In this document: positions 24,900-64,000 of the stretch, one piece after another
How the letters are laid out: every line of letters begins with the position of its first letter
Numbering within the stretch: the first letter of the stretch is position 1
Assembly: GCF_003334385.1 (NCBI RefSeq)
Contig: NZ_QOWN01000017.1
Direction: 5' to 3' (one strand)
Length of the DNA: 64,000 nucleotides
Source of the DNA: Escherichia coli
GTDB lineage: Bacteria > Pseudomonadota > Gammaproteobacteria > Enterobacterales > Enterobacteriaceae
Made by a program: the position numbers and the translations under genes
Notes under the pieces: generated by a model
Seen by the model: only the letters and a program-made list of their open reading frames with translations
Told to the model about the DNA's origin: nothing
Databases searched by the model: none

Positions 24900-24915
24900 T
24901 TAAAAGGCAGGAACC

Positions 24916-26073
24916 ATGGAGCGCAACGTCACGCTCGATTTTGTTCGCGGCGTCGCCATTCTGGGGATCCTGCTATTAAACATCAGCGCCTTTGGGCTAC
25001 CAAAGGCGGCTTATCTCAATCCCGCCTGGTACGGTGCTATTACGCCGCGGGATGCATGGACTTGGGCATTTCTTGATCTCATCGGCCAGGTGAAATTCCT
25101 CACGCTTTTTGCGCTACTGTTTGGTGCGGGCCTGCAAATGTTGCTGCCCCGTGGCAGACGCTGGATCCAGTCGCGGTTAACGCTGTTAGTCTTGTTGGGC
25201 TTTATTCACGGTTTATTGTTCTGGGACGGCGATATTTTGCTGGCTTACGGGCTGGTGGGCTTAATCTGCTGGCGGCTGGTGCGCGATGCGCCATCGGTAA
25301 AAAGCCTGTTTAATACAGGCGTCATGCTTTATCTGGTGGGGCTTGGCGTTTTGCTGTTATTGGGGCTGATTTCCGACAGCCAGACCAGCCGCGCCTGGAC
25401 GCCGGATGCATCGGCTATTTTGTATGAAAAATACTGGAAGCTTCACGGCGGCGTTGAAGCGATCAGTAATCGTGCCGATGGTGTTGGCAACAGTTTACTG
25501 GCACTGGGCGCACAGTATGGCTGGCAACTGGCAGGGATGATGCTCATTGGTGCGGCGCTGATGCGCAGCGGCTGGCTGAAAGGGCAGTTCAGCTTACGTC
25601 ACTATCGTCGTACTGGTTTTGTGCTGGTGGCGATTGGGGTGACCATTAACCTTCCTGCCATCGCCCTGCAATGGCAGCTGGACTGGGCGTATCGCTGGTG
25701 TGCCTTCTTACTTCAAATGCCGCGGGAACTGAGTGCGCCGTTTCAGGCGATTGGCTATGCGTCGCTGTTTTATGGCTTCTGGCCGCAATTGAGCCGCTTT
25801 AAGCTGGTGCTTGCGATCGCCTGCGTCGGACGGATGGCGCTGACCAACTATCTATTGCAAACGCTGATTTGTACCACGCTTTTTTACCACCTCGGTTTGT
25901 TTATGCATTTTGACCGCCTGGAGCTGCTGGCGTTTGTTATTCCGGTATGGCTGGCGAATATCCTCTTCTCTGTTATCTGGCTGCGTTACTTCCGCCAGGG
26001 GCCGGTGGAATGGCTCTGGCGTCAGTTAACTTTGCGTGCTGCCGGACCGGCAATATCTAAAACATCAAGATAA
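24916..26073 (+). CDS. yeiB: Inner membrane protein YeiB (DUF418)
   Basis: 385-aa polytopic ORF, 16 nt after folE. Confidence 0.9.
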   Translation: MERNVTLDFVRGVAILGILLLNISAFGLPKAAYLNPAWYGAITPRDAWTWAFLDLIGQVKFLTLFALLFGAGLQMLLPRGRRWIQSRLTLLVLLGFIHGLLFWDGDILLAYGLVGLICWRLVRDAPSVKSLFNTGVMLYLVGLGVLLLLGLISDSQTSRAWTPDASAILYEKYWKLHGGVEAISNRADGVGNSLLALGAQYGWQLAGMMLIGAALMRSGWLKGQFSLRHYRRTGFVLVAIGVTINLPAIALQWQLDWAYRWCAFLLQMPRELSAPFQAIGYASLFYGFWPQLSRFKLVLAIACVGRMALTNYLLQTLICTTLFYHLGLFMHFDRLELLAFVIPVWLANILFSVIWLRYFRQGPVEWLWRQLTLRAAGPAISKTSR

Positions 26074-26103
26074 CGATCTGGATCACATTCGTTAACAAAA
26101 CGG

Positions 26104-26139
26104 CTGTAACCGTTTCCATTGCTGTGACTCGATTCACGA
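26104..26139 (+). promoter_or_regulatory. galS promoter: gal operator plus CRP site
   Basis: cTGTAACCGTTTCCAt fits the GalR/GalS operator consensus GTGKAANCGNTTNCAC; TGTGActcgatTCACg is a CRP-type site. Confidence 0.65.
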
Positions 26140-26214
26140 AGTCCAGTATTCAGTGCTGACAAAATAGCCGCCAGCAAGCAGTCATTTACTGCAATCTCAT
26201 AACAGGTAGTGAAT

Positions 26215-27255
26215 ATGATCACCATTCGTGATGTAGCGCGTCAGGCTGGCGTCTCTGTGGCAACGGTTTCCCGGGTGCTCAATAACAGCACGCTGGTCAG
26301 TGCCGACACGCGTGAAGCAGTAATGAAAGCCGTGAGTGAGCTGGATTATCGGCCAAACGCCAATGCCCAGGCGCTGGCAACTCAGGTTAGCGACACCATT
26401 GGCGTGGTGGTGATGGACGTTTCTGATGCGTTTTTCGGCGCGCTGGTAAAAGCGGTGGATCTGGTCGCTCAGCAGCATCAGAAATACGTGCTAATCGGCA
26501 ATAGCTATCATGAAGCGGAAAAAGAGCGTCACGCCATTGAGGTGTTAATTCGCCAGCGTTGTAATGCGTTGATTGTTCACTCAAAAGCATTGAGTGACGA
26601 TGAACTGGCGCAATTTATGGATAACATTCCCGGTATGGTGTTAATCAACCGCGTTGTGCCGGGGTACGCCCATCGTTGCGTTTGCCTGGATAATCTCAGC
26701 GGTGCCCGAATGGCGACGCGCATGTTGCTGAATAACGGTCATCAACGTATTGGTTATCTTTCTTCCAGCCACGGCATTGAAGATGACGCCATGCGTAAAG
26801 CAGGCTGGATGAGTGCGTTGAAAGAGCAGGATATTATTCCGCCGGAAAGCTGGATTGGCGCTGGTACGCCGGACATGCCGGGCGGTGAGGCGGCGATGGT
26901 TGAACTGCTGGGGCGCAATCTACAACTTACCGCTGTATTTGCTTATAACGACAATATGGCCGCTGGCGCACTGACAGCATTAAAAGATAATGGCATTGCG
27001 ATTCCGTTACATCTCTCAATCATCGGTTTCGATGATATTCCCATCGCCCGTTACACCGACCCGCAATTAACGACCGTGCGTTATCCCATTGCTTCAATGG
27101 CGAAATTAGCCACCGAACTGGCCTTGCAGGGGGCAGCAGGCAATATTGATCCTCGTGCCAGCCACTGTTTTATGCCGACGTTAGTGCGTCGCCATTCTGT
27201 CGCAACACGCCAGAATGCGGCGGCGATCACTAACTCAACAAATCAGGCGATGTAA
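26215..27255 (+). CDS. galS: GalS, LacI-family mgl/gal isorepressor (346 aa)
   Basis: Start at ATG 26215 ([24 protein letters not shown]), 6 nt inside the track ORF. Confidence 0.93.
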
Positions 27256-27283
27256 CCGCTTTCAATCTGTGAGTGATTTCACA
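27250..27283 (+). promoter_or_regulatory. mglBAC promoter: gal operator plus CRP site
   Basis: aTGTAACCGCTTTCAa operator-like dyad overlapping the galS stop, then TGTGAGTGATTTCACA (perfect CRP half-sites). Confidence 0.7.
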
Positions 27284-27534
27284 GTATCTTAACAATGTGA
27301 TAGCTATGATTGCACCGTTTTAACGTTGTAACCCGTATGTAACAGTGAATAATCACTTTTGCCGAGGTAACAGCGTCATAACAACAATTAAAGCCGTTTT
27401 CTGGAGCGTTACCGGGCATGGAAGAACGAATTTTAAAAAGTGAGCTTCGGCGTTCAGTAACACTTCATTAACTCTACTGCCCCGCCGAGCATTTATCTCA
27501 AGCACTACCCTGCATAAGAAAAACCGGAGATACC

Positions 27535-51407: not shown

Positions 51408-52139
51408 ATGAAGATGTTGCGCGATCCGCTGTTCTGGCTCATTGCTCTGTTTGTGGCGCTGATTTTCTGGCTGCCTTACAGCCAGCCGCTGTTTGCTGCC
51501 TTGTTCCCACAACTGCCACGACCCGTTTATCAGCAAGAAAGTTTTGCAGCTCTGGCACTGGCTCATTTCTGGCTGGTGGGAATTTCGAGTTTGTTTGCGG
51601 TGATCATTGGCACTGGTGCCGGAATTGCTGTCACTCGCCCGTGGGGCGCGGAATTTCGCCCACTGGTGGAAACTATTGCCGCCGTTGGACAGACTTTTCC
51701 GCCCGTCGCAGTGCTGGCGATCGCCGTTCCGGTGATCGGCTTTGGTCTGCAACCAGCGATTATCGCCTTGATCCTTTACGGTGTGCTGCCCGTCCTGCAG
51801 GCGACACTTGCCGGGCTGGGAGCGATTGATGCCAGCGTGACAGAAGTTGCGAAAGGTATGGGAATGAGTCGTGGTCAGCGACTGCGTAAGGTCGAGCTAC
51901 CGCTGGCGGCTCCGGTGATTCTGGCGGGCGTGCGAACTTCGGTGATTATCAACATTGGTACGGCGACGATCGCCTCAACGGTAGGGGCCAGCACGCTGGG
52001 TACGCCCATCATCATCGGGCTTAGCGGATTTAATACCGCGTATGTGATCCAGGGGGCGTTACTGGTGGCACTGGCGGCGATCATCGCAGACCGCCTGTTT
52101 GAAAGGCTGGTGCAGGCGCTTAGCCAGCACGCAAAATAA
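51408..52139 (+). CDS. yehW: Glycine betaine ABC transporter permease YehW
   Basis: 243-aa polytopic ORF. Confidence 0.9.
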
Positions 52140-52227
52140 AGGTATAACCTGCGAGCATGACGCCACCAATTCCGCCTAACGCCATAAACAGGAACAGGGC
52201 GATGACCCCAATTTTAGCTATGCGCAT
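52120..52227 (-). CDS. yohO: Small membrane protein YohO (35 aa)
   Basis: Not in ORF track; translation gives [35 protein letters not shown]; 3' end overlaps yehW by 20 nt (convergent). Confidence 0.75.
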
Positions 52228-52286
52228 AATGCACTCCTTATGTTAACGAAAGGATTGTACAGTAAAGCGCATTTGTTAACGAATCA

Positions 52287-52979
52287 TTAAATGCCGAGTG
52301 GGAAAATATCATGGCCTTGTTCTTGCCAACTGGTGAGTTGCTGCTGTTGGGCGGAGGTTCGATTTTCACCGCACCACACCAGCAATGTACGGCCTTCGAA
52401 TAGTTCAGGGCGTAGTTGATTGAGCGAGTGGGCGAGGACATCAATGCGCCATCCTTGTTGACTGGCAATCCAGCCCTCCAGCCACAGACGGGTGGTATCC
52501 TGAATATTCCAGCCAACCACCAGCGCATCTTTACCCTGTTTTTTACGTGCCGAAGCCAGACAAATGGCGATGTAGTTGATCAGTACGCCGTCGAGGATCG
52601 CCAGCAGCGCCTGGAGAGTCGGTTGTTGGCACTGAAGCCGTCGGCGCAGAGGAATAAACAGATGTGTGGTGAGTGTCTGGGCGGGGTAATCCTGACCGCG
52701 CTCTTTGATCCACGTTCGCAGGCTATGTAGATTGCCGCTTTGCAGGTAAGTCAGTAATGTTTCTTGCTGATCGCGCCAGCCGTTCTGCACATCAACATTT
52801 TCATTACTGAGCAGCATTTTAACTTTGCTGACCTGCACGCCGTTGTCGATCCAGCGTTTGATCTCGCGGATCCGGTCAATATCGGCATCGTTGAACAGCC
52901 GATGACCGCCGTCTGTCCGTTGCGGTTTCAGCAATCCGTAACGCCTCTGCCACGCGCGTAACGTGACAGGGATTAAGGG
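52287..52979 (-). pseudogene. mlrA: mlrA (yehV) MerR-family curli regulator, 5'-truncated by prophage insertion
   Basis: Translation matches MlrA from ...PVTLRAWQRRYGLLKPQRTDGG to the C-terminus; the first ~17 codons are replaced by unrelated sequence with an in-frame stop at 53004..53006 and no start codon. Confidence 0.8.
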
Positions 52980-53008
52980 TAAACTAATTGATTTTGCAAG
53001 TTTTTATT

Positions 53009-54295
53009 TTACCCAGCTTTCTTATGGGGCATACATGGGACACTTTCAGATAGTCTTTTGTTAAGGAGTTCTATCTGTTCGTGATTGTTGTCTTTCATCC
53101 ATGCTCCGTAAACATTGAATACCATTTGTGCGTTTGTGTGGCCCATCTGGCTTGCGATAAAACTAGGATTAGCTCCAGCGGCAAGTGACCAGCATGCATA
53201 AGTATGCCTGGATTGGTACGATTTTCTGTGTCTCAGACCTGCGCGTTTTAAGATACTTGTCCATGACTCCCTGATGGAGTCAACCTTATAGTGCGGTCCG
53301 GAAAACTGCCGCTGTTTTATTACCTGAGGACTAAAAACAAAAGTGCATTTATGCACAGTACTTCTCCCATATTCCCTCTGCTTTACCTCTACAGAATGTT
53401 GCTTTCCAAGCATGGTCATTTCCGCCTGACTTTTAAGAGCATCAATAGCTGGTTGAACCAGATGAATTGTCCTTCCGGTGCCAGCATCGGTTTTTGGTGG
53501 AGTGAATTCGCCAAGTTTTGTATAATTCCTACGGATGGTTATAGTCCTTGCTTTAAGATCTATATCTTCCCATGCCAGCGATACCAGCTCCCCGTGACGA
53601 ATACCCGTGTATACAGCGAGAATCCACAGGTTTTTTGTTTGTTGATGACGGCAAGCCTCAATAAAACGAATAAATTCGTCACGGGTGAGAGGATCTGGTT
53701 TTACCTTGGACTTTTTTAAGGGGGCCAGACCGTTAAATGGGTTTCCTGAGGTATAACCATTATCTGTTGCAAATTGAAACATTCCAGCTATGGTTGTCAT
53801 ATAGTAGTTTACTGTGACCACTGAGCGCCCTTTTATGGAAGAAATCTTTCCATTAGAAAGCTTTTGGTAACCGGTCAACAAATCTCTCCTTGCGAAAAGT
53901 AAATCCTCTTTTGTTATGGATGAAACCAGTTTTTTCTCACCCAACATAGGCAACATGTTTTTAATTACTGACTGGTAACGATTAAGTGCATTCGCACAAA
54001 TCTCAATTTTCTTAAGGTCCAACCATTTTTCCGAAAGTGCCTTAACGGTTATCTCTCTTTTTCCCAGACCAAAGTGTTTCAGGTTAGGGGAATTAGGGAA
54101 CTGTGTAGCGTAGTCGAAACTCCCCATTCTGATTGCAAAACAAACGGAAGTGCGAAGTTCACCTGCGATCTTCCGGTTTTTGGCGGTGTCAGGAACACCG
54201 AGGTTTTCTCTGACACGTTTGCCATTATAGTGAAACCATATACGGAGTGATCCTCCATGGTTTTCAACGCCTGTCGGGTATGATACGTTACTCAT
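53009..54295 (-). CDS. int: Phage integrase (tyrosine recombinase)
   Basis: 428-aa ORF; GGGAGG SD; C-terminal catalytic region with conserved R...HxxR...Y pattern (RHTYACW, final Y in NVYGAWM). Confidence 0.85.
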   Translation of the reverse strand: MSNVSYPTGVENHGGSLRIWFHYNGKRVRENLGVPDTAKNRKIAGELRTSVCFAIRMGSFDYATQFPNSPNLKHFGLGKREITVKALSEKWLDLKKIEICANALNRYQSVIKNMLPMLGEKKLVSSITKEDLLFARRDLLTGYQKLSNGKISSIKGRSVVTVNYYMTTIAGMFQFATDNGYTSGNPFNGLAPLKKSKVKPDPLTRDEFIRFIEACRHQQTKNLWILAVYTGIRHGELVSLAWEDIDLKARTITIRRNYTKLGEFTPPKTDAGTGRTIHLVQPAIDALKSQAEMTMLGKQHSVEVKQREYGRSTVHKCTFVFSPQVIKQRQFSGPHYKVDSIRESWTSILKRAGLRHRKSYQSRHTYACWSLAAGANPSFIASQMGHTNAQMVFNVYGAWMKDNNHEQIELLNKRLSESVPCMPHKKAG

Positions 54296-54328
54296 TAAAC
54301 CTCCCAGACGTCCAGGAGCATTAACAGG

Positions 54329-54583
54329 TTAACCGGAACTTGCATTTTTGGCACCTGGTTGTTTCTGGTTTTCGATCCATCGCATAATTTCTTCGATGTT
54401 GTACAGGCATTCACTGTAATGCCCAGGATCACCTTCTACAGCGTAATGGCGGTATTCTTTTCCCTGCATCCATGACTTTCTTCTGGCCCGCTCGATGGTG
54501 CCGGGCTTTAGCCCTGTTGATGCAATAAGGACTCTCTCCGTACACCATTTGCTGGGGGTTATCTGATAGATGATTGTCTGCAT
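54329..54583 (-). CDS. Putative excisionase / small DNA-binding protein
   Basis: 84-aa basic ORF immediately upstream of int, same strand; resembles excisionase-like phage proteins (from memory). Confidence 0.5.
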   Translation of the reverse strand: MQTIIYQITPSKWCTERVLIASTGLKPGTIERARRKSWMQGKEYRHYAVEGDPGHYSECLYNIEEIMRWIENQKQPGAKNASSG

Positions 54584-54739
54584 GCCAGCCTCATAAAACT
54601 TTCATCCACGGCAGTGGCACCACATTTCAAACATTCGCTTCACAACTTCACGACAGTAGAAGCCATCAACATCTCGCGTCAGGTCATAGTGATTGCCGTA
54701 ACGCTGGTGGACCCATCGTTCAAATGCTTTATTCATTCT

Positions 54740-54982
54740 TTACTTCCTTTTTATGGCTCGTAATTTTTTCAGGTGCTTTTCCTGCTCAGTGTCCGCGAGA
54801 ATTTTGCGGTACTCCTGGTGGTCAATATGTTCGAACAGGCAGTTTAACTCACCAATGCGTACCCGCCCGGATCGTCCGTCCACCCGTCGAAAGAACACTG
54901 AGTGCTCAGTGATGCGAGTAATCACCACGGGGTATCCGGCTCTGTCCGTGTATATCTGACCGCGTTGAATCAAAGCGAACAT
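54740..54982 (-). CDS. Hypothetical phage protein (80 aa)
   Basis: Track ORF 54740..55018; ATG at 54982 preceded by GGGGA. Confidence 0.45.
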   Translation of the reverse strand: MFALIQRGQIYTDRAGYPVVITRITEHSVFFRRVDGRSGRVRIGELNCLFEHIDHQEYRKILADTEQEKHLKKLRAIKRK

Positions 54983-55066
54983 GTGGTTATCCCCATCGAC
55001 AAATCGAGAACACAACAAACGCTGCTGCGAATACCACCCCCAGAGTTACGATTGCATCAGGCCAGC

Positions 55067-56011
55067 TCATTGATTCACCTCCTGCCTGTCGTCCGGCATT
55101 CGCTCACTACAGCTTATCCAACCATCCGGAGTTACCGGAACTTGTGGAATGGCTGTCTGCTCTCGAACGTCATTAGGCGCTATAGGTTCTGCTGCCAACT
55201 GACTGGCATATTTGTTAATGGTAACGATAAGCTCTTGCTCAGCCTCATCCAGACAATCACCGATACCTCGCCTGTCACCGTCAAAATCATCGAAATCGGC
55301 ACGAATCCTGGCAACCTTCAGGATTGCGGACAACACCTCACTAGGAATTGCCGGATAGTTGGTTGACGTTTCCGCGATTTCCCGAAAATTATTGGTTGAC
55401 GAATTCTTGTTTTCCCGAAAGTTTCCGGACTGAAGCATGGCGGCGCGGCAGGCGTTCCATATTTCGGCAGCAATATCGCGCTCGCTATCGGTTAATTTGT
55501 ACGTTGAAACATAGCCAGAGAGCATTTCTACGTTTTCCGGAGTTGCTTCTTCAGGCACTACCGGTGCTGGCTCACGTATTACAGGCTCGCCCATGCGTGA
55601 TTCTCCCTGCGCCTCTTTCACCATGTGGTCATTGATTTGCTCCAGTCGCCGAACGTGCTCATCAGCTTCAAGCGCTCGCCGTTTCCAGATGGACAGGTCT
55701 TCACGAGCGCCCTGATATGCGTCACCGTATTCGCCGTTAAATACTGGCGCTGGCGGGGCGATGCGTCCAAGCAACTTATTTACCTCTTTCGCCATCGCGT
55801 CATATTTATCTAAATAGCGATTAGCTTCTAAGCAGACTCGGTGCATCTGATCTGAGTTAACTCGTTTAACTGGATCTGCTTCCAATGATGCCAGTGCAAT
55901 TCGTGCCAGTTCTTCCGCTTCTTCTGCTGGCAGTACAACGTTGCTACCCGGTCCGTATGTTTCGCGCCACTGCTTGATTGTCAGCAGTCGCCCTTTGGTA
56001 ATAGTGATCAT
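55067..56011 (-). CDS. Hypothetical phage protein (314 aa), shares RIALASLEA(D/E)PV motif with the 56428..56877 product
   Basis: Strong SD AAGAGGA; paralogous N-terminal motif; C-terminal GWISCSERMPDD resembles DUF551-type phage proteins (from memory). Confidence 0.6.
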   Translation of the reverse strand: MITITKGRLLTIKQWRETYGPGSNVVLPAEEAEELARIALASLEADPVKRVNSDQMHRVCLEANRYLDKYDAMAKEVNKLLGRIAPPAPVFNGEYGDAYQGAREDLSIWKRRALEADEHVRRLEQINDHMVKEAQGESRMGEPVIREPAPVVPEEATPENVEMLSGYVSTYKLTDSERDIAAEIWNACRAAMLQSGNFRENKNSSTNNFREIAETSTNYPAIPSEVLSAILKVARIRADFDDFDGDRRGIGDCLDEAEQELIVTINKYASQLAAEPIAPNDVREQTAIPQVPVTPDGWISCSERMPDDRQEVNQ

Positions 56012-56014
56012 GGG

Positions 56015-56203
56015 TTATCCTCTTAGCGCCACAACGCGCACTTCTGGGTCAAAGGATGATGAATTTTCATCTGTAATATCAGCAACATGACCTACAAAGT
56101 CGTTATACTCACACTCTGATTGTTCATAGCCCTGCCAGACCACGACAGCCTCAGGAGGCATTTTTCTGAGCTTGCTGATTAATTGCCTCACCGTCAGTGA
56201 CAT
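56015..56203 (-). CDS. Hypothetical small phage protein (62 aa)
   Basis: Perfect SD AAGGAG in an AAGGAGAGTGATATG junction; acidic C-terminus. Confidence 0.55.
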   Translation of the reverse strand: MSLTVRQLISKLRKMPPEAVVVWQGYEQSECEYNDFVGHVADITDENSSSFDPEVRVVALRG

Positions 56204-56204
56204 A

Positions 56205-56351
56205 TCACTCTCCTTTACCCGCTGCTTTCGCCTGCTCTTTAGCGAGTCGCTCCGCTTCTCTGAAATCCCAATCTACTCGATGTGCTATATCAATTGCAGA
56301 ACGCACGGTCCGTTCAATTAGCGTATCCAGGTTATCAATTGTCATTGCCAT
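56205..56351 (-). CDS. Possible small phage protein (48 aa)
   Basis: ORF below track threshold; helical charged sequence; stop TGA lies in the coupling junction to the next gene; no clear SD. Confidence 0.3.
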   Translation of the reverse strand: MAMTIDNLDTLIERTVRSAIDIAHRVDWDFREAERLAKEQAKAAGKGE

Positions 56352-56427
56352 ATCTGGATTGCGAGATAAAATCTCCGCCCTCTGAATCTGCTAGTTGTTG
56401 CAGGTTTCAAGTAATGAGTTAGCCATA

Positions 56428-56877
56428 TCACTCTCCTTTGATGCCAATGTTTACAGCCTGGCAAGCCTCTTTGAGTACCCAGTCAACAGCGTCTTTCCAT
56501 GCTCCGGTTTCGACTGGCGGATTTTCACGCTTAACCTGTTCATAGAAACGCACTGCTTTAATCAATCCTTCTGATGTCAGTGGCACAGGCGGGGCAGTGA
56601 ATAACGCCTGAATTTCATAGTTCGGTCTGTCGTTGCAATCCTCTTTTGTCGGTACATATTTCCAGTCACCAACCCACGAATCCCCCTGAGAGTCCGTAAC
56701 ACCTTTTTTCACGTAGCGATATCGCCACGCGACTGGCTCTGCTTCCAACGATGCCAGTGCGATACGAAACACATTGGCAAGCAGGCTGCTTGAAGATTGG
56801 TTATCGTGCGCCGGGTCGCTCAGGAAACCAGTGATGAATGATTTAATTTCCGCGTTTTCTCTGGTAATAGTGGTCAT
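56428..56877 (-). CDS. Hypothetical phage protein (149 aa), paralogous motif with 55067..56011
   Basis: SD GAGGA; start overlaps upstream stop (ATGA). Confidence 0.6.
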   Translation of the reverse strand: MTTITRENAEIKSFITGFLSDPAHDNQSSSSLLANVFRIALASLEAEPVAWRYRYVKKGVTDSQGDSWVGDWKYVPTKEDCNDRPNYEIQALFTAPPVPLTSEGLIKAVRFYEQVKRENPPVETGAWKDAVDWVLKEACQAVNIGIKGE

Positions 56878-57083
56878 TTATTAATCCTCAAAACTTTATG
56901 CCCGGGCGCAAAAGCACGTGTTTTGTCTTTGCTTATTCGCCAGCCATCCTTGCGCGCCTCTTTTGCACAGCCAGCCCATGACGTACCGATATACTCACCG
57001 AAGTCTGGCGTTTGATATTTACCATTTGTACACTGGCAACAATCACAGTAGAGATGCATGGTGTAACTTGCGGAAATAGCCAT
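56874..57083 (-). CDS. Small Cys-rich phage protein (69 aa; CDCCQC...C, possible zinc ribbon)
   Basis: Start at internal ATG of track ORF 56874..57191 with perfect SD (AAGGAGCCTGATATG); upstream gene stop sits in the SD spacer. Confidence 0.55.
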   Translation of the reverse strand: MAISASYTMHLYCDCCQCTNGKYQTPDFGEYIGTSWAGCAKEARKDGWRISKDKTRAFAPGHKVLRINK

Positions 57084-57084
57084 A

Positions 57085-57276
57085 TCAGGCTCCTTTAGTG
57101 CGTAAGTGGTTTTTCCAGCGGTTTTGCGCCGCGCTGCGCTTATCTTTGATTCCCTCTCTGGCAATTCCAGAATATAAGTACAACACCACACGGCGATTGC
57201 TAACTCTCAACCACTGGCTGGGATAGCAACGTCTGTATACACGGGAGATAAGCATCTTTGCTTTACGGTTTTTCAT
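57085..57276 (-). CDS. Small basic phage protein (63 aa), tandem paralogue A
   Basis: N-terminus MKNRKAKMLISR...WLRVSNRRV conserved with the adjacent upstream ORF at protein level; ATGA-coupled. Confidence 0.5.
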   Translation of the reverse strand: MKNRKAKMLISRVYRRCYPSQWLRVSNRRVVLYLYSGIAREGIKDKRSAAQNRWKNHLRTKGA

Positions 57277-57455
57277 CTTACTGCGTACCCTTTCTTCCGC
57301 CTGTTCTGTGACGCGCTAGGCTTTTTGCAACAACTGTGCCCCATCACCCCGCAACACCCCGTCAACCTCACTCGTCTGTTACTAATCCTCAACCATCGCC
57401 AGACCCCAACACCGTTTCTGCGAGCTAACAGAATTTTTGCCTTACGGTTTTTCAT
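57273..57455 (-). CDS. Small basic phage protein (60 aa), tandem paralogue B
   Basis: MKNRKAKILLAR...WLRISNRRV; SD AGGAGA; start overlaps upstream stop (ATGA). Confidence 0.5.
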   Translation of the reverse strand: MKNRKAKILLARRNGVGVWRWLRISNRRVRLTGCCGVMGHSCCKKPSASQNRRKKGYAVR

Positions 57456-57628
57456 CGTTTTGTTCTCCTGCGTTTCTTTGCTGCTCGTCGTGCCGCTGCA
57501 ATACCGGTATGGCGGCGCTTTGGTGCCGGGATGATGTTGTCAGCCATCAGGACATGTGGCTTTGCAATTAGCGCAGAAGCCCAAAAACGAGTCGGGTACG
57601 GTAACAAGCCGATACATGCCACACGCAT
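57452..57628 (-). CDS. Small basic phage protein (58 aa)
   Basis: Below track threshold; SD AGGAGG 6 nt before ATG; start overlaps the Ea22-like stop (TAATG) and stop overlaps next start (ATGA). Confidence 0.5.
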   Translation of the reverse strand: MRVACIGLLPYPTRFWASALIAKPHVLMADNIIPAPKRRHTGIAAARRAAKKRRRTKR

Positions 57629-58443
57629 TACTCACCTCCTTTGATGCGAATGCCTGCGGCGCGGATTGCAGCGATGACTTCAGAAACTTTGTATGCCATT
57701 ACCGTTTGGTAATCATCGTGAAAATCTGTTCGATGAAGCATGCTGCTACGTTCCGGGAGCGATATTTCCCGAGCATCCAGTTCCTTAACGCGTTCCTCCA
57801 GTTCGTAGACCCTGCATTGTTCTCTATCATCAATCAGATATAACCCAAGACATTCGCTTTCTACCCAACCGCCAAAATCATGATCGTAACGCTCACATGA
57901 AAACTCACCGTCACCGTCCTTTGTTGGAATGGTGTAACTATCTAATGTGCCACCATATGTCGGCACATTTCCCAATGTTGGATGCTCAATCCACATGAAA
58001 AATGCACGTCCGGTTATTGGGCAAATATCTGGCCGCCATTGGTTACGAACAGCCTTGGTTTCGGATAATTCTTCAGCGTGTTGTTTTACTTCCTCAAGCT
58101 CAACTCTCAGCTTCCCTACCGTTAGCGCAATATCCTCGTTCTCCTGATCGCGGCTTTTGATGTATTGCAGGTTTCTTTCCCGTTCATCCAGCAGTGCCAG
58201 CACGGTAGCCGGGTTAGCCTCTGCTATGAATTCAGCGTTTGCATAAGCCTGAGCATCTGTTTCAACCAGGCAGTTAACGTGACATTCTGCAATTACGCCA
58301 CCGGGTTCTCCTTTCCATTTTTGACAAACAAAAACTCCTGTTAAATTGCCGTGTTGGTTAACAGATGTATGCCCTACGATGTAGCTTCCTTTAGTTGCTT
58401 TCTCTGCCTTTTCACGCAGTGCCTGATAGTCAATCTTGCTCAC
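57628..58443 (-). CDS. Ea22-like phage protein (271 aa)
   Basis: GTG start with SD AAGGAGG; contains LLDERERNLQYIKSRDQENEDIALTVGKLRVELEE and C-terminal GIRIKGGE, which I recall as characteristic of lambda Ea22. Confidence 0.65.
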   Translation of the reverse strand: MSKIDYQALREKAEKATKGSYIVGHTSVNQHGNLTGVFVCQKWKGEPGGVIAECHVNCLVETDAQAYANAEFIAEANPATVLALLDERERNLQYIKSRDQENEDIALTVGKLRVELEEVKQHAEELSETKAVRNQWRPDICPITGRAFFMWIEHPTLGNVPTYGGTLDSYTIPTKDGDGEFSCERYDHDFGGWVESECLGLYLIDDREQCRVYELEERVKELDAREISLPERSSMLHRTDFHDDYQTVMAYKVSEVIAAIRAAGIRIKGGE

Positions 58444-58744
58444 TGGCAGCCTCCTTTGCCGGGATTTCTAACTTTTGAGTGGTTGTATCAAATTCAAACA
58501 ACTTAACCACGTCATCAAACAGGACATAATCACCATCAGGATTTTCAGTCATATCTGCGCCACAATCCTGACCGCACGAGTCGCAACCATCCATATCAAG
58601 CTCGTATCGCTTCAGGTTTGCGATATTTGATAAATTCAGCGCCAGTACAGCCAGGTCATAAACCTCTTCGGCAGTGACATCGCTGTTCAGTCCCATTTCA
58701 TGGCGATATATGATTTTTTCTACTCGTTGTTTTGTGATCGTCAT
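58430..58744 (-). CDS. Hypothetical phage protein (about 104 aa)
   Basis: Track ORF 58430..58768; ATG at 58744 (MTITKQR...); alternative start at 58696 possible; acidic, Cys-containing. Confidence 0.45.
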   Translation of the reverse strand: MTITKQRVEKIIYRHEMGLNSDVTAEEVYDLAVLALNLSNIANLKRYELDMDGCDSCGQDCGADMTENPDGDYVLFDDVVKLFEFDTTTQKLEIPAKEAASEQD

Positions 58745-59015
58745 TTTTCTCTTCACTCCGATATACAAGGATTACTACACCCCCTCTGCTGATTGCGCGA
58801 GCTGGATCCCCTGGTTCCATGCCGTCAATTCCGAAGGCTTCGGAAAACGCATTCATTGCCTTCTGGCGTTCATCCTGCTTACGGCGTTTATTCCATTTTT
58901 TCAGGAACAACAGCGACAGCCACCGTCCGCTGCAGAACACGATGTAAAAATAACCAAGGAGCGCCAGGCCGACATTCAGGGCCGTTTCTATGGTTAGTTG
59001 TGAGTCAGTTGCCAT
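58698..59015 (-). CDS. Small membrane protein (105 aa; one N-terminal TM helix, then basic stretch)
   Basis: Hydrophobic segment LNVGLALLGYFYIVFCSGRWLSLLFL followed by KKWNKRRKQDERQK; 3' end overlaps next gene so true stop/start uncertain. Confidence 0.4.
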   Translation of the reverse strand: MATDSQLTIETALNVGLALLGYFYIVFCSGRWLSLLFLKKWNKRRKQDERQKAMNAFSEAFGIDGMEPGDPARAISRGGVVILVYRSEEKNDDHKTTSRKNHISP

Positions 59016-59253
59016 TTCTTACCTGTTTAAGTAACTGGTTGAACATAACACTTAGGGGATTGCTGTATCCAAACGGCAGATTGTTTACGCAGTACAGAAT
59101 CATTTTGTTTTTTTCTCCAGTTCGTACTATTAACCCATTCCACAATAACCGTGATAATTCATTACTGATAGAAGTTGCGCTTCTTCCAAGTGCGAGGGAT
59201 ATATCTTCTCTACTGCAATCTGGATTTTCCTGGATATACTCGATAACGGTCAT
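59005..59253 (-). CDS. Putative winged-helix DNA-binding protein (82 aa)
   Basis: Track ORF 59005..59295; ATG at 59253 (MTVIEYIQENPDCSREDISLALGRSATSISNELSRLLWNGLIVRTG...) resembles a wHTH. Confidence 0.45.
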   Translation of the reverse strand: MTVIEYIQENPDCSREDISLALGRSATSISNELSRLLWNGLIVRTGEKNKMILYCVNNLPFGYSNPLSVMFNQLLKQVRNGN

Positions 59254-59263
59254 GTGGTCCCTT

Positions 59264-59845
59264 TTACTTAATATCTGTTTCGGATTGCATGCCATGAGTA
59301 TTCATTTCGTTAATAATTTCATCCAGAAGGATTTCAAGCCCTTCTCGACCCATATCTGAAAGAATGAAACCTTTATCAGGGGAAGTAGTGAGCATTTTCT
59401 GATAAAGAAACAGCGCTCTTCCCATTCCTTCAGTTTCGCCGTATTTTTGAATTAAATTCCATTCAATATACTGTTGTAAGGCAAATCGAATGGGGCCGGG
59501 ATATATCGTCATAAACCCATACATCCCGTTATATACCACGGCGTGTTCAGTTGTTCCGTGTTCATTCAGGATATCAATTGTGCCGTTCTTGTCTTCTTCT
59601 TCGTTGATGAATGTCGTCACATACAACCATCGCCACTGAGCAACCTTCATCTCAACCGGAAGTTTACCCAGTAATCCTGCTTCGTCGGCTTGCGCCAGAC
59701 ACTGAAGGATACGTAAACCTCGCACATTAGGAGTATCGAATTCTCCGGCATCCAGACGACGTATGGCGTCGTGATAATCAATCGTCATACTGCCAGTTCG
59801 TATACCATTGGCTGTTGCTTCAGCCTGGAATTCATCGTATTGCAT
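59264..59845 (-). CDS. Hypothetical phage protein (193 aa)
   Basis: SD GAGGA; no recognisable motifs. Confidence 0.55.
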   Translation of the reverse strand: MQYDEFQAEATANGIRTGSMTIDYHDAIRRLDAGEFDTPNVRGLRILQCLAQADEAGLLGKLPVEMKVAQWRWLYVTTFINEEEDKNGTIDILNEHGTTEHAVVYNGMYGFMTIYPGPIRFALQQYIEWNLIQKYGETEGMGRALFLYQKMLTTSPDKGFILSDMGREGLEILLDEIINEMNTHGMQSETDIK

Positions 59846-59850
59846 GATAT

Positions 59851-60039
59851 TTATTCCTCATCTTCATCTTCATCTGCTGGTGCAATAACGTCATATCCTG
59901 CCTTTTCTGCAATAAACAGGAATGTTGAAAGAGTTCCTACAAGTTCATCGTCATGAACATGGCGAATGAATATTACTTTCCCGTTTTTGATGGTCAGCAA
60001 TATTCTGGTTTGTTCGTGTTCTGCTGTTTTCTGATGCAT
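59851..60039 (-). CDS. Small phage protein with acidic tail (62 aa; ...APADEDEDEE)
   Basis: SD GGGAGA; stop 6 nt before next start. Confidence 0.5.
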   Translation of the reverse strand: MHQKTAEHEQTRILLTIKNGKVIFIRHVHDDELVGTLSTFLFIAEKAGYDVIAPADEDEDEE

Positions 60040-60233
60040 TATTATCTCCCGTATGCTTTACGCAGAAATAAGCAGGCAATATGCATGTAATTTTCACCGT
60101 ATTGTGCAATAAGGCAGGCGGTCTTGTGTGATGCCATATTCTTTATAAAAGTCACAATAAAGCCTCCTGTGGATTAAGGTTGTAACAATCCCCGGCGATA
60201 AAACCGCAATAAACGTTCAGGGCATATTTGTTG

Positions 60234-60599
60234 TTATTGCGCTAATTCTTTTTCGGCAGCAGCTTTTGTATACTCACATGCAAAACTCAGAATTTCGCTG
60301 CCGAGTGTTTTCGTTTCGTGATTACTGGACATATGTAATACCTGTGTTGCATGCAATAAATGATAAACATTTACCGCAAATGAATCAGGCTCCAGACAAA
60401 TGCCTTCGTAATTATCTTGCTGTGAGGTTGTTTCTGTCATTGCTCCTGAAGTGCATGCGAGCCTGTTTTTGACAATTCTCTTTTCTCTAATCACTATATC
60501 GGCAACATCTATTGCCTTTACAACCTCCGGGAGAAGTTCCGGGTTTGTATAATCAAAGTCATCAACATGGAGAACAGTTATGTTTTCGAACTTTTTCAT
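60234..60599 (-). CDS. Hypothetical phage protein (121 aa); C-terminal half paralogous to the N-terminal domain of the 60728..61276 product
   Basis: SD GAGGAAG; alignment LEPDSFAVNVYHLL...KTLGSEILSFACEYTKAAA versus LELDSFALNIANLL...KELGIEVMEFIHEYALSAA. Confidence 0.55.
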   Translation of the reverse strand: MKKFENITVLHVDDFDYTNPELLPEVVKAIDVADIVIREKRIVKNRLACTSGAMTETTSQQDNYEGICLEPDSFAVNVYHLLHATQVLHMSSNHETKTLGSEILSFACEYTKAAAEKELAQ

Positions 60600-60727
60600 G
60601 GCTTCCTCAGCTGACTTATATGTTCTGCTATATAGCGAGTCTCAGAAGTGTTTTCATATTGAGACTGTTTCCACAATGATTGATAAAAATGTTCGCATGT
60701 ACCTTGAAGGGCGAAGCGGCGATTATG

Positions 60728-61276
60728 TCACCATTGGTATTGGTTCTTCCGCAGAAGAGCTTCGCGAGATAAGGGGCAAACTTGTTGAGATGCGTCATGG
60801 TGTTGCTGCTCCTCACTTTTTGGTTGCTCCGGAGGAGTAACCTCACCAGTTAACAGGCACATCGGATCGCAGCCAAGAATATTTGCCAGTGGGATAAGCA
60901 TACTGATAGTTGGTTCATACTCTCCGCTCTCCCACTGGATGATAATTTCTTCATCGAGATCGAGCAGCCTGGCGAGTTCGGCGGTTGTTAAGCCGCAGGC
61001 TTCGCGTTGGGTGCGAAGGTTAACCAGCCAGCTTTCAGGGAAGGATTGTTTTTGCTGTGCAGGAGAAGCAGCAGATAGAGCATATTCATGGATAAATTCC
61101 ATTACCTCAATGCCCAGTTCCTTTGAGCGAGCACAATCCAGAAGATGGAATGTGCGTACAGCACTTAGCAAATTTGCAATATTTAATGCAAAGGAATCAA
61201 GTTCTAAGCCCTTAAGCGTAACACAGCCGCAGTTGATAAAATTAGTTGTTTCTGGAGTTGCTTTTAGTGTCTTCAT
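60728..61276 (-). CDS. Two-domain protein: N-terminal unknown domain plus C-terminal XRE-type HTH (182 aa)
   Basis: ATG at 61276 (track ORF extends to 61306); HTH segment GLTTAELARLLDLDEEIIIQWESGEYEPT; first gene downstream of a sigma70-like promoter next to cI. Confidence 0.55.
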   Translation of the reverse strand: MKTLKATPETTNFINCGCVTLKGLELDSFALNIANLLSAVRTFHLLDCARSKELGIEVMEFIHEYALSAASPAQQKQSFPESWLVNLRTQREACGLTTAELARLLDLDEEIIIQWESGEYEPTISMLIPLANILGCDPMCLLTGEVTPPEQPKSEEQQHHDASQQVCPLSREALLRKNQYQW

Positions 61277-61329
61277 ATATCCGCCAACAATTTTAAATTG
61301 AATCAAATCAAGTTATAATTGATGGTGCG

Positions 61330-61358
61330 ATATTATGTTTTGGGAAACAGGCTGTCAA
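61330..61358 (-). promoter_or_regulatory. Sigma70-type promoter (pL-like) reading leftward, away from cI
   Basis: On minus strand: TTGACA (61358..61353), 17-bp spacer, TAATAT (61335..61330); about 45 nt upstream of the 61276 start. Confidence 0.6.
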
Positions 61359-61388
61359 GAAAAAATTGATATCGTATATTTCAGGCAG

Positions 61389-61410
61389 AAAAAAAACGGG
61401 CAAAGCCCGT
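61389..61410 (-). terminator. Rho-independent terminator just downstream of cI
   Basis: Minus strand: ACGGGC-TTT-GCCCGT followed by T8 (plus-strand A8 at 61389..61396). Confidence 0.75.
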
Positions 61411-61422
61411 TAAAATCAAAGA

Positions 61423-62112
61423 CTAACCAAATCTGTTTATGTTGAATGGTACTGATGAGATCACTTTAGACTGGATATAAAGCAGAGCTAACCCCTCTTT
61501 TTCGATGCTCCATGGTTGATAATTGGGGTTATCAGATAACACCATGATTTTGCTTCCAATTTTTTGAAGCCTTTTCACGTAGCATTCTCCATCAAAACAA
61601 AATGCATAAATACCATCGCCATCAAAATAAGTTACTGTCTTATCAAGAAAAAGAAGGTCGCCAGGTGAGATTGTGGGAGCCATACTGTCTCCTCTGGCGT
61701 TACCTATTTCTATATTTTTGAATGCCCGATTTCCAACAAGACGTCGGGCATATTCAGGATCAAGTTCTATTGAGCGCACTACATCTATCAAGTCACCACG
61801 GACATGAGTTCCATCACCGCAACTAAACTCAACATCAAGGACATTAAATACGACGCTATCTGTTCTTGTCTGGTGTTTCTCTTGCGAGGAAAAGGTTGGT
61901 GAGGAGTCTTCACCTAAGAACCAGGATTGTGGATAACCGCTAATCTCTGATAAATGCGCGAGCTTATCACTCCGTGGAAATGTTTTTCCTGTTGTCCAGT
62001 ACTGCACTGATTGCGCACTCACACCTAACTTGCGGGCCAGTTGAGCCTGAGTCCATCCTTTTGCTTTCAGCATCGCGGCTATTCGATTTTCCGTGTTTTT
62101 GACGTTCTTCAT
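61423..62112 (-). CDS. cI: CI-type prophage repressor (N-terminal HTH plus C-terminal S24 LexA-like autopeptidase), 229 aa
   Basis: ATG at 62112 (MKNVKNTENRIAAMLKAKGWTQAQLARKLGVSAQSVQYW); S24 motifs GDSMAPT (Ser) and YVKRL (Lys); divergent from Cro-like gene. Confidence 0.85.
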   Translation of the reverse strand: MKNVKNTENRIAAMLKAKGWTQAQLARKLGVSAQSVQYWTTGKTFPRSDKLAHLSEISGYPQSWFLGEDSSPTFSSQEKHQTRTDSVVFNVLDVEFSCGDGTHVRGDLIDVVRSIELDPEYARRLVGNRAFKNIEIGNARGDSMAPTISPGDLLFLDKTVTYFDGDGIYAFCFDGECYVKRLQKIGSKIMVLSDNPNYQPWSIEKEGLALLYIQSKVISSVPFNINRFG

Positions 62113-62245
62113 GACCAAATCCTGTGGGTTTCTTTACAAGGATAAATCTTTACTTGATTTTAGTGTATTCGATCCTTTTGTAACTTGCATGTTAATTTAA
62201 ACTTGATGTATTCTTGATTTATAAAGTTAATATTGGTGTTTTGTT

Positions 62246-62536
62246 ATGGAAGGAAATGATTACGACAAACTTCGTGCATTAATTGCGCAAAATGCCATAG
62301 CGCGAAATCTTGGTGTGACGCCGCAAGCGGTGAATCAGTGGTTTTCAAAAAGCACAATTCCTGCTCGTTTCGTTTTACGAGTATGTGAAGTAGTTGCATG
62401 GAAGGTTACGCCTCATGGCTTAAGGCCAGATCTTTATCCTCACCCTGAAGATGGAATTCCTAACTTGTTACGCAAAAGCCTAAATCCAAGTTCACCACAC
62501 AGAGCGGATGGAATACACGCAGGAGATAAACAATGA
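62246..62536 (+). CDS. cro: Cro-like HTH regulator (YdaS/DUF1019-like), 96 aa
   Basis: HTH NLGVTPQAVNQW; HGLRPDLYP motif; divergent to cI across a 133-bp AT-rich intergenic region. Confidence 0.7.
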   Translation: MEGNDYDKLRALIAQNAIARNLGVTPQAVNQWFSKSTIPARFVLRVCEVVAWKVTPHGLRPDLYPHPEDGIPNLLRKSLNPSSPHRADGIHAGDKQ

Positions 62537-63240
62537 ACACCGCAATTTTTAACGGCAAAGCATCCATGACCAGCGTTGAGATCGCAGAGCTGGTGGGAAG
62601 CCGACCAGATAGTGTTAAGAGAACTATTGAAACACTGGCTAAAAAGGGAATCATCCAATTTCCACAGACTGTGGAAATTGAGAATAAACAATCACTTGGG
62701 CCTCGCCGATTTTCTAGCGCGTATGTATTCGAAGGTGAACGAGGTAAGCGCGACAGCATCATTGTCGTCGCACAGCTCTGTCCTGAATTCACAGCTCGCC
62801 TGGTAGATCGCTGGCGCGAACTGGAAGAACAGATCCGTAAGCCAATGAGCGAAATCGAAATGGTTGCCGCGATGGCTCTTGAAGCCGTTCGCCAACAGAA
62901 ACGGATCACTCAGGTGGAAGAAAAAGTCAGCCACGTTGCTGAAACAGTCGAGCAAATTAAAAAGGGCACTATTCGTGAGGGCTATGCCGGATATCGCCAA
63001 CTGAAAGCAAAAACCGGTTTGTCAGATGATAAATGCCGCAATCTGGTGAACGCCTATCAAATTCCTACAGACACACATGAGTTCATGACGCCGGACGGAT
63101 TGTTGTCACGTCGCGCAATTGTTGCTGTGGAACCGTTTATGGCTGCTTTTTATCGGGTTATGGAGGAAGCAGAACCGCGAGGGACTCGCTGGTATCACCC
63201 GAAAATGGGGTTATTTCAGGTTATTGGTTGGCAGCGATGA
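62533..63240 (+). CDS. Putative phage regulatory / antirepressor-like protein (235 aa)
   Basis: Start overlaps cro stop (ATGA); N-terminus MTSVEIAELVGSRPDSVKRTIETLAKKG resembles Rha/Bro-N-type DNA-binding N-domains. Confidence 0.5.
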   Translation: MNTAIFNGKASMTSVEIAELVGSRPDSVKRTIETLAKKGIIQFPQTVEIENKQSLGPRRFSSAYVFEGERGKRDSIIVVAQLCPEFTARLVDRWRELEEQIRKPMSEIEMVAAMALEAVRQQKRITQVEEKVSHVAETVEQIKKGTIREGYAGYRQLKAKTGLSDDKCRNLVNAYQIPTDTHEFMTPDGLLSRRAIVAVEPFMAAFYRVMEEAEPRGTRWYHPKMGLFQVIGWQR

Positions 63241-63648
63241 AAAAAAGCCGGGAGTAACCCGGCTCACTCAACATCAATAACGGGGAGCTGTTTCGCATAA
63301 AACGGCTCCGAAACATCCAAGAACAGTTCTAAAGATATCAGCAGCTATATGATCATTTCAAGACCAAATATTGATTCTGCAATTCCGGGACGTTACACTG
63401 CTCAGGCACCTTATAAAGCGGGTGCCGGGGGTCGCAGCCCGGAATTGTCAACGGCGATATATGACGCGCCAGCGTCTTTTTTATCGTCCGCGCTCACGCA
63501 CGCCAGAATTATGGTGGGCTGGGCAGGGGAGCCGAAAGGCTCGCCGGTCTCCGTTGACGCCGGTACTGCGAACCCTGTTCAGTCTGCCACCAGTGAGTTT
63601 CGCAGCTCCGGTGGTGGAAGTTTTCCACAGTCAACGGAGGCTGCCATC

Positions 63649-64000
63649 ATGGCTACGATCCCAACCCTCACTCAACCTGAAATTGCCATCGTTGATGGTC
63701 AGGCTGTTACTTCATCCCTGGCTGTTGCCAACTTCTTCTCCAAACGTCATGACGATGTACTGAAAAAGATCCGCACGCTTGAATGCTCTGCATCATTCAC
63801 TTCCCGCAATTTTTCGGTGAGTGATTACACCGATTGCACAGGCCGCAAACTACCTTGCTATCAAATAACCCGCGACGGCTTTGCGTTTCTTGCTATGGGT
63901 TTCACGGGTAAACGTGCTGCCCAGTTCAAAGAGGCATACATCAATGCCTTTAACCAGATGGAGAAACAGCTTTCAAATCCCTCTGTACTGAGCGACGTTG
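63649..64000 (+). CDS. Rha-family phage regulatory protein, 5' portion (partial, runs off window)
   Basis: SD AACGGAGG; MATIPTLTQPEIAIVDGQAVTSSLAVANFFSKRHDDVLKKIRTL...RDGFAFLAMGFTGKRAAQFKEAYI matches the Rha-family pattern. Confidence 0.7.
   Translation, partial: MATIPTLTQPEIAIVDGQAVTSSLAVANFFSKRHDDVLKKIRTLECSASFTSRNFSVSDYTDCTGRKLPCYQITRDGFAFLAMGFTGKRAAQFKEAYINAFNQMEKQLSNPSVLSDV

Follow-up and report, generated by a model that had tools for sequence, protein, structure and literature searches.

A prophage at mlrA of Escherichia coli that probably belongs to the known lambda-like class without recombination and RecBCD-inhibitor genes

We analyzed a 64,000-nucleotide (nt) stretch of Escherichia coli DNA (assembly GCF_003334385.1, contig NZ_QOWN01000017.1; hereafter, the window), at the end of which lies the left arm of a lambdoid prophage with mlrA (yehV) as its insertion locus. 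With a probability of about 80%, this prophage belongs to a known class of lambda-like phages that have neither a recombination (Rec) module nor an inhibitor of RecBCD, and two known cassettes make up its mosaic early-left operon. The initial annotation, made from the sequence alone, had reported no recombination or host-shutoff homologue between int/xis and the repressor gene, and had offered two explanations: that these genes had diverged beyond recognition, or that this lineage had replaced them with novel small proteins.

Every open reading frame (ORF) was compared with the profiles of PHROGs, NCBIfam, PADLOC, and Pfam-A (E ≤ 0.01 for PHROGs and NCBIfam). In none of the four collections (for Pfam, among the families listed) was there a match to Exo/YqaJ, RecE, Bet/RecT, Erf, Sak, SSB, Gam, or Abc2 for any ORF from int to the repressor, nor did any ORF match the Kil, CIII, or N families. 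The same search run recognized the integrase, excisionase, repressor, and Ead/Ea22 protein, together with Cro/YdaS-like, Rha/Ant-like, DUF4222, DUF551, DUF4752, MarR-like winged-helix, and XRE-type helix-turn-helix (HTH) families. With PADLOC, only generic HTH or winged-HTH matches and no defense system were obtained across all ORFs, and a permissive Rfam scan of positions 52000-64000 gave nothing credible between int and the repressor; a Bp1_781 candidate at 61388-61473, overlapping the repressor-side border, was rejected at 18.8 bits against a threshold of 80. A PHROG family was found for every ORF of at least 44 amino acids (aa), with E-values of 1e-19 to 1e-90, and the sole ORF without a PHROG match was one of 37 aa at 60042-60155. 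The Pfam hits are given for the ORF set, and their assignment to single ORFs rests on the RefSeq names of identical genes.

The profile search of every ORF thus identified no canonical recombination gene, and the absence reported by the initial annotation was borne out. Its description of the small proteins as novel was not: all ORFs of at least 44 aa fall into catalogued PHROG families, present in phage genomes deposited as early as that of phiP27. Its count of a single Ea22-like gene was also too low, because Ea22-type N-termini were found on the 314-, 149-, and 112-aa proteins in addition to the 271-aa Ead/Ea22-like protein.

Comparison with Shiga toxin (Stx) phages and yehV-integrated prophages indicated that the region consists of two known blocks. 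The first (block A, 52000-58457) was 99.9% identical to a prophage at mlrA in E. coli EC2. Within it, positions 52951-55085 (int, xis, the 44-aa gene, and the DUF4222 gene) and 58094-58444 (the 5′ end of the Ea22-like gene) were approximately 94% identical to the Stx1 phage BP-4795. Upstream of Ea22, the BP-4795 gene order is DksA-like zinc-finger, ZapA-annotated, DUF1382, DUF1317, exo, bet, gam, kil, cIII, ssb, and N; Sp15, the yehV Stx1 prophage of O157 Sakai, is reported to carry exo, bet, and gam (PMC8046923). Homology to EC2 ended at 58457 and homology to BP-4795 at 58444, the start codon of the Ea22-like gene, and homology to Escherichia phage PhiR49_2 began at 58412; the mosaic joint thus lies at this start codon.

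The second block (block B, 58412-63965) matched PhiR49_2, with 99.6% identity over 58450-61420. Its identity to the SCU-105 prophage was 98.5%, and several Stx1a and Stx2a phages matched parts of it at 87-92%. Segments of it were 79-97% identical (79.3% and 97.1%) to the Stx2e phage phiP27, whose L06, L08, and L10 are homologues of the 193-, 121-, and 192-aa proteins. These homologues occur in the same order beside the repressor, with 64.5% identity to the L06 region by tblastn, and "L08" and "L10" appear as notes in the PhiR49_2 record. Of 5426 complete E. coli genomes, 103 contain block B at ≥80% coverage and 899 contain part of it. No Rec module is annotated in the complete records with block B or the 193-aa gene (PhiR49_2, Stx1_14040, phiP27, Stx2_95, and KPP5665-2), in ASU11, CharmingMan, or phi467 across the early-left region, or in the SCU-105 prophage up to the portal gene.

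Because homology to BP-4795 stops and a known block follows, the Red/kil/cIII/N segment was exchanged for another cassette and did not diverge in place. Of the initial proposal that novel small proteins had replaced the module, the replacement was therefore upheld and the novelty was not. In the EC2 prophage (24441-27467 of the EC2 locus), the int-to-Ea22 block is joined to a yfdR/yfdQ/yfdP cassette typical of LLS and ST64B, so that one int-proximal block occurs with three alternative cassettes: Red in BP-4795, YfdPQR in EC2, and the phiP27 type in the window. The two-block mosaic seen here is new as a combination, because coverage of positions 52000-64000 by any one database record stays within 81%.

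The distribution of Chi sites provided an independent test. In lambdoid phages that lack both a recombinase and a RecBCD inhibitor, Chi accumulates in the lambda-active orientation, mainly from the replication origin to cos, and phages with a Rec module and an inhibitor avoid Chi (PMC3784561, PMC12315714). Among the Rec-less lambdoids, 62 of 68 have at least eight Chi sites in the active orientation and at most six in the inactive orientation (PMC12315714). We counted Chi (GCTGGTGG) on each strand of complete phages carrying block B or its 193-aa gene, and used BP-4795, which has the same integrase type and a similar G+C content, as the matched control:

PhiR49_2, no Rec module: 11 on the top strand, 3 on the bottom strand
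Stx1_14040, no Rec module: 8 top, 2 bottom
phiP27, no Rec module: 12 top, 5 bottom
Stx2_95, no Rec module: 15 top, 3 bottom
Klebsiella phage KPP5665-2, no Rec module: 14 top, 1 bottom
BP-4795 (57.9 kb), Rec module present: 2 top, 1 bottom

The complete relatives thus show the published pattern (≥8 active-orientation and ≤6 inactive-orientation sites), and the partial Rec-less prophages SCU-105 and EC2 had 11/4 and 12/3 sites (top/bottom), respectively. Composition-preserving block shuffles of PhiR49_2, Stx1_14040, phiP27, and Stx2_95 yielded approximately one top-strand Chi, with a maximum of 4-6, and in PhiR49_2, Chi was tied as the commonest octamer. Host-like composition as the source of Chi was ruled out by these shuffles and by BP-4795, which has only two top-strand sites at a similar G+C content. 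In the E. coli relatives, the right arm holds most of the Chi sites, in the stretch that starts just beyond the immunity region and reaches the terminase genes. Two sites fall within the window prophage:

54703-54710, plus strand: Chi site within the 44-aa gene, also present in BP-4795 at 1753
62589-62596, plus strand: Chi site (GCTGGTGG) in the Rha/Roi-like gene, with its PhiR49_2 equivalent at 8099; the first of the right-arm cluster in the relatives

The Chi enrichment is demonstrated for the relatives, not for the window prophage itself.

A Rec-less state is well documented among phages of this kind. Of the 275 lambdoid phages and prophages surveyed by Bobay et al. (2013), only 141 had a recombinase, and no phage was found with an inhibitor but without a recombinase (PMC3784561). 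Zheng et al. (2025) reported that 68 of 314 lambdoid phages (22%) lack a Rec module, that the presence of RecBCD improves the growth of phage LLS, and that the early-left regions of the Rec-less class share no universal gene of unassigned function (PMC12315714). The absence of a Rec module is therefore a real, common, and already described state of lambda-like phages.

In such a phage, host recombination would be exploited rather than superseded. The first cassette is an int-proximal "exo-xis-type" block (Ea22-like, DUF4222, DUF551, and small proteins) that also occurs in Rec-positive Stx1 phages. The second (DUF4752, MarR-like winged-helix HTH, the 193-aa orphan, L07/L08-like proteins, and the XRE regulator) occupies the place held by exo-bet-gam-kil-cIII-ssb-N in lambda, BP-4795, and Sp15. 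After replication or terminase cutting, host RecBCD would enter the phage DNA ends, as lambda genetics and the published surveys suggest (PMC3784561, PMC12315714). RecBCD would then be switched to RecA loading by actively oriented Chi sites, which cluster between the replication genes and cos, and host recombination would supply the concatemers for cos packaging. Gam would be unneeded and even counter-productive in such a cycle, and Kil and CIII, which are accessory in lambda, would be dispensable.

Several points weigh against assigning the window prophage to this class. Only 11 kb of the prophage lies inside the window, and the best database relative covers at most 81% of positions 52000-64000, so the right arm beyond the window could differ. 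The prophage portion has two top-strand and no bottom-strand Chi sites in these 11 kb, and because the site at 54703 is shared with the Rec-positive BP-4795, the window alone cannot show enrichment. The RecBCD dependence of this lineage is deduced from the Chi statistics and from LLS. Finally, small RecBCD inhibitors (50-140 aa) can escape detection by sequence or size, and only one uncharacterized protein of the region was modeled.

The mlrA frame (52287 to approximately 52988, minus strand) continues across into the end of the prophage, with its usual 5′ end, which encodes the N-terminus, replaced; in lysogens with the same insertion, RefSeq still annotates an MlrA of 233 aa. The 21-bp attachment (att) core of Stx1_14040 was not found within the window, and the left end was therefore set from the BP-4795 alignment, which places position 1 of that record at window position 52951. 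From the host flank to the prophage, the G+C content changes from approximately 0.55 to 0.41-0.50. The region 53009-62118 contains int, xis, approximately 19 further ORFs, and a CI-like repressor gene, tightly packed and with all credible genes but one on the minus strand. The window follows the lambdoid gene order from int through cI, cro, and Rha, and the remainder of that order (replication genes, Q, lysis genes, and structural genes) was read in the near-identical relatives PhiR49_2 and SCU-105.

This layout bears on the idea that the prophage is a decaying, cryptic one, in which a Red-type module was once present and then deleted, so that its absence would be uninformative about phage strategy. 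The 314-aa protein does seem to end inside a DUF551 domain, insertion sequence (IS) elements and pseudogenes occur in related prophages, and the remainder of the prophage lies outside the window. However, the ORFs at 53009-62118 are intact, tightly packed, and co-oriented, most with plausible ribosome-binding sites, and the Red position holds a different 3-kb coding block rather than a scar. The same Rec-less gene order also occurs in genomes deposited as complete phages, among which ASU11 is recorded as induced with mitomycin C, and the block has ≥80% coverage in 103 complete E. coli genomes. We consider decay very improbable.

The genes of the int-proximal half are as follows:

53009-54295, minus strand: tyrosine integrase, 428 aa (phrog_1, E 9e-83; annotated by RefSeq as a tyrosine-type recombinase beside mlrA in EC2 and SCU-105)
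54329-54583, minus strand: excisionase, 84 aa (phrog_539, E 1.6e-37)
54602-54736, minus strand: 44-aa protein (phrog_3871, E 1.6e-30)
54740-55018, minus strand: DUF4222 protein (phrog_285, E 1.7e-33, aligned from residue 13; Pfam DUF4222 match in the ORF set; EC2 equivalent named DUF4222)
55067-56011, minus strand: acidic modular protein, 314 aa (phrog_14306, E 2.4e-53; also phrog_60, phrog_660, and phrog_3323)
56015-56203, minus strand: 62-aa protein (phrog_6161, E 7e-21)
56205-56351, minus strand: 48-aa protein (phrog_10585, E 3e-23)
56428-56877, minus strand: 149-aa protein with an Ea22-type N-terminal segment and the motif RIALASLEAEPV, read from the translation (phrog_660, E 4e-56; also phrog_60)
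56874-57083, minus strand: Cys-rich 69-aa protein with five Cys and an isoelectric point (pI) of 9.1 (phrog_926, E 1.2e-35, residues 37-105 of a longer ORF)
57085-57276 and 57273-57455, minus strand: two tandem, very basic paralogues of 63 and 60 aa (phrog_1380, E 1e-32 and 6e-29)
57452-57628, minus strand: basic 58-aa protein, pI 12.0 (phrog_13831, E 1.3e-41)
57628-58443, minus strand: Ead/Ea22-like protein, 271 aa (phrog_250, E 2e-70; also phrog_368; RefSeq EC2 equivalent named ead/Ea22-like)

The start of the DUF4222 protein is probably an internal ATG at 54982, giving 80 aa. The 314-aa protein is composed of an Ea22-type N-terminal segment, a middle domain, and a partial DUF551-like C-terminus, and appears to stop approximately 20 residues into the DUF551 domain; the Pfam DUF551 match in the ORF set has an E-value of 4.1e-4, and we infer that it falls on this ORF. 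In the identical EC2 gene, RefSeq places the start further downstream (259 aa), although the N-terminus of the longer form is matched by PHROGs 660 and 3323, both of Ea22 type. The two tandem basic paralogues are 46.6% identical to each other, with pI values of 11.6 and 11.9. One ORF in the set matched Pfam Ead_Ea22 (PF13935; E 1.8e-33). The 314-, 149-, and 112-aa proteins (55067-56011, 56428-56877, and 58430-58768) open with a similar segment of approximately 50 aa (MxTITK..., ...RIALASLEA-PV), and their C-termini are otherwise unrelated. These shared openings match PHROGs 60, 660, or 3323, and the arrangement looks like domain shuffling onto a common Ea22-type N-terminus.

The repressor-proximal block comprises the following genes:

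58430-58768, minus strand: acidic 112-aa protein, pI 4.4, the first gene of the PhiR49_2-type block (phrog_3126, E 2.5e-63, from residue 9)
58698-59015, minus strand: DUF4752 protein, 105 aa, with one hydrophobic segment (phrog_667, E 3e-40; Pfam DUF4752, E 8.6e-37 in the set; SCU-105 equivalent named DUF4752)
59005-59295, minus strand: MarR-like winged-helix protein, 96 aa (phrog_1687, MarR family, E 1.3e-24; Pfam MarR_2 and HTH_24 in the set; named MarR family in Stx1_14040)
59264-59845, minus strand: acidic 193-aa protein, homologue of phiP27 L06 (phrog_1515)
59851-60039, minus strand: 62-aa protein with an acidic tail, at the position of phiP27 L07 (phrog_340, E 3e-22)
60234-60599, minus strand: 121-aa protein, homologue of phiP27 L08 (phrog_5451, E 1.7e-83; "L08" note in the PhiR49_2 record)
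60580-60840, plus strand: 86-aa ORF, convergent with the early-left operon (phrog_6104, E 4e-49, 80/80 profile positions)
60728-61306, minus strand: XRE/HTH_3 regulator, 192 aa, homologue of phiP27 L10 (phrog_4836, "CII-like regulator", E 5e-77; DicA-like HTH; P22 C2-like HTH in PDB)
61423-62118, minus strand: CI-like repressor with HTH and Peptidase_S24 (LexA/S24-type) domains (phrog_4, E 4.7e-54; Pfam Peptidase_S24, E 6e-17 in the set)

An alternative start of the 112-aa protein, ATG at 58744, would give approximately 104 aa. A literature search on DUF4752 found nothing. A 47-aa segment is shared, at 42.6% identity, by the 121-aa protein and the 192-aa XRE regulator, in the latter within its N-terminal half (E 1.6e-8), and the two could be a regulator and its partner or anti-regulator; a PDB sequence search with the 192-aa protein returned HTH domains only. 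The plus-strand 86-aa ORF, overlooked in the initial annotation, shares 113 nt with the 3′ end of the 192-aa ORF. In its 5′ third it is conserved with phiP27 L09, and over positions 60687-60844 the window bears no relation to the longer phiP27 sequence there; the tail of the 192-aa ORF may therefore be read-through into this segment.

Across the whole region, and leaving the Ea22-type proteins aside, the 193-aa protein is the sole candidate of recombinase size that lacks an assignment. Its family (phrog_1515) has a gene in 36 phage records and forms approximately 100 clusters at 50% identity, mostly stand-alone proteins of approximately 200 aa, across Enterobacterales prophages. A Pfam search with 45 members of the family found no domain. 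Searching the PDB by sequence gave nothing either, whether the query was the 193-, 271-, or 314-aa protein or a profile built from 45 members of the 193-aa family. The AlphaFold2 model of the 193-aa protein was confident, with a predicted local distance difference test (pLDDT) score of 84.5 and a predicted template modeling (pTM) score of 0.82. It showed no single-strand annealing protein (SSAP), nuclease, or Gam fold and had no match in PDB or BFVD, and an AFDB50 search with it returned only its own family. The model thus gives no support for the 193-aa protein as a diverged Bet, Erf, Sak, Exo, or Gam, and the initial suggestion of genes diverged beyond recognition found backing neither in the profile searches nor in this fold.

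The same protein is a candidate for a recombination or RecBCD-modulating function that is present but unrecognizable, that is, an annealing protein, an inhibitor, a modulator, or an accessory factor of host recombination encoded in the repressor-proximal block; the small acidic 62-, 112-, and 121-aa proteins are the other candidates. The 193-aa gene lies mid-operon, in the usual position of the Rec module, and occurs in 36 phage records; its family is conserved across Enterobacterales with no assigned function; and several of its neighbors are small and acidic, as are Gam, Abc2, and gp5.9. In addition, all nine elements read with the 193-aa gene have no annotated Rec module. However, these nine elements are not independent lineages, mutual exclusion is expected of alternative cassettes, and the Chi pattern speaks against an inhibitor. 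We regard such a hidden factor as unlikely.

A narrower proposal starts from the same co-occurrence: the 193-aa gene was found without a Rec module in 9/9 elements whose early-left operon was read, and the complete ones are Chi-rich; its product, moreover, has a confident predicted fold unmatched among solved structures. The 193-aa family, perhaps with its small acidic neighbors, might be an accessory factor that helps Rec-less, Chi-rich phages to exploit or tune RecBCD/RecA, although we rate this as highly unlikely. If true, the family would stand in functionally for the Rec module, at the position which that module holds in the operon.

The control signals and RNA elements around the repressor gene are as follows:

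61411-61395, minus strand: putative terminator after the repressor gene, with a 7-bp stem and a T run
61358-61330, minus strand: predicted PL-like promoter, TTGACA-17-TAATAT, 10/12 in a consensus scan
61308-61323 and 61355-61370: TCAAG-N6-TTGAT palindromes flanking the PL-like promoter
63406-63482, plus strand: isrK Hfq-binding RNA (Rfam 58.7 bits against a gathering score of 50)
63507-63594, plus strand: C4 antisense RNA (Rfam 78.8 bits against a gathering score of 45)

The terminator, promoter, and palindromes are consensus matches only; half-sites of the form CTTGAT are found again between cI and cro. The 192-aa regulator is the first gene after the PL-like promoter, the position of N in lambda. 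No N-like antiterminator, lambda-type cII, or cIII was recognizable in the visible part of the immunity region, including 61307-61422 and 62119-62245. The leftward operon, 8 kb long, would have to be read through to int without N. To the right of the repressor gene lie a Cro/YdaS-like gene, a Rha/Roi-like gene, and the isrK plus C4 antisense-RNA element. The two RNAs, the sole Rfam matches above the gathering score in 52000-64000, lie just downstream of the Rha/Roi-like gene and are a putative P1/P7-type c4/antirepressor-style immunity element of the early-right arm. Together, the Cro/YdaS-like gene, the Rha/Roi-like gene, and the isrK/C4 pair point to a non-lambda immunity circuit.

If the prophage belongs to the Rec-less class, as we consider likely, it is an example of the published dichotomy between phages that supersede host recombination (a Rec module and an inhibitor, and no Chi) and those that exploit it (no Rec module and many Chi). 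For annotation, missing Red genes should not be taken as prophage decay or hidden novelty, and the yehV/mlrA site of Stx phages can host a prophage with either of the early-left cassettes. As a discovery, the case carries little weight.

Among known systems, the LLS group (PMC12315714) and the lambdoids without a recombinase and inhibitor (PMC3784561) have the same lambdoid layout and the same lack of SSAP, exonuclease, SSB, and anti-RecBCD genes in the early-left region. The relatives with block B also resemble this class in their Chi pattern: 8-15 sites are actively oriented and 1-5 are not, and they cluster in the right arm, between the immunity region and the terminase genes. In contrast, LLS and ST64B carry yfdR/yfdQ/yfdP early-left, where the window has different genes.

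Like the exo-xis region of lambda, the window has a run of small early genes, including one for an Ead/Ea22 protein, between xis and the recombination position. It differs in having the Ea22-type N-terminus on several proteins with differing C-termini, and none of orf60a, orf61, orf63, orf73, and ea8.5 of the lambda region was identified in it. The exo-xis genes of lambda and Phi24B modulate the lysis-lysogeny decision, and Ea22 is pro-lysogenic (PMC7093339, PMC10834534); by analogy, the Ea22-type and small proteins of the window are best regarded as exo-xis-type accessory genes that may modulate this decision.

BP-4795 and VT1-Sakai/Sp15 share with the window the integration at yehV (mlrA), an int-xis-44aa-DUF4222 segment approximately 94% identical, and the 5′ part of the Ea22-like gene. 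However, BP-4795 has the DksA-like, DUF1382, and DUF1317 genes, exo-bet-gam-kil-cIII-ssb-N, ninB, and ninG, none of which is in the window. phiP27 differs from the window in its int-proximal half, which is L03-L05 in place of the Ea22/DUF4222 block, and at 60687-60844; its structural module is of the contractile-tail type, whereas the tails of PhiR49_2 and Stx1_14040 are lambda-like. In the repressor-proximal block, phiP27, PhiR49_2, ASU11, and the Stx1a-Stx2a phages LC5678xx resemble the window, with homologues of L06, L08, and L10 and a gene at the L07 position in the same order beside a CI-like repressor gene.

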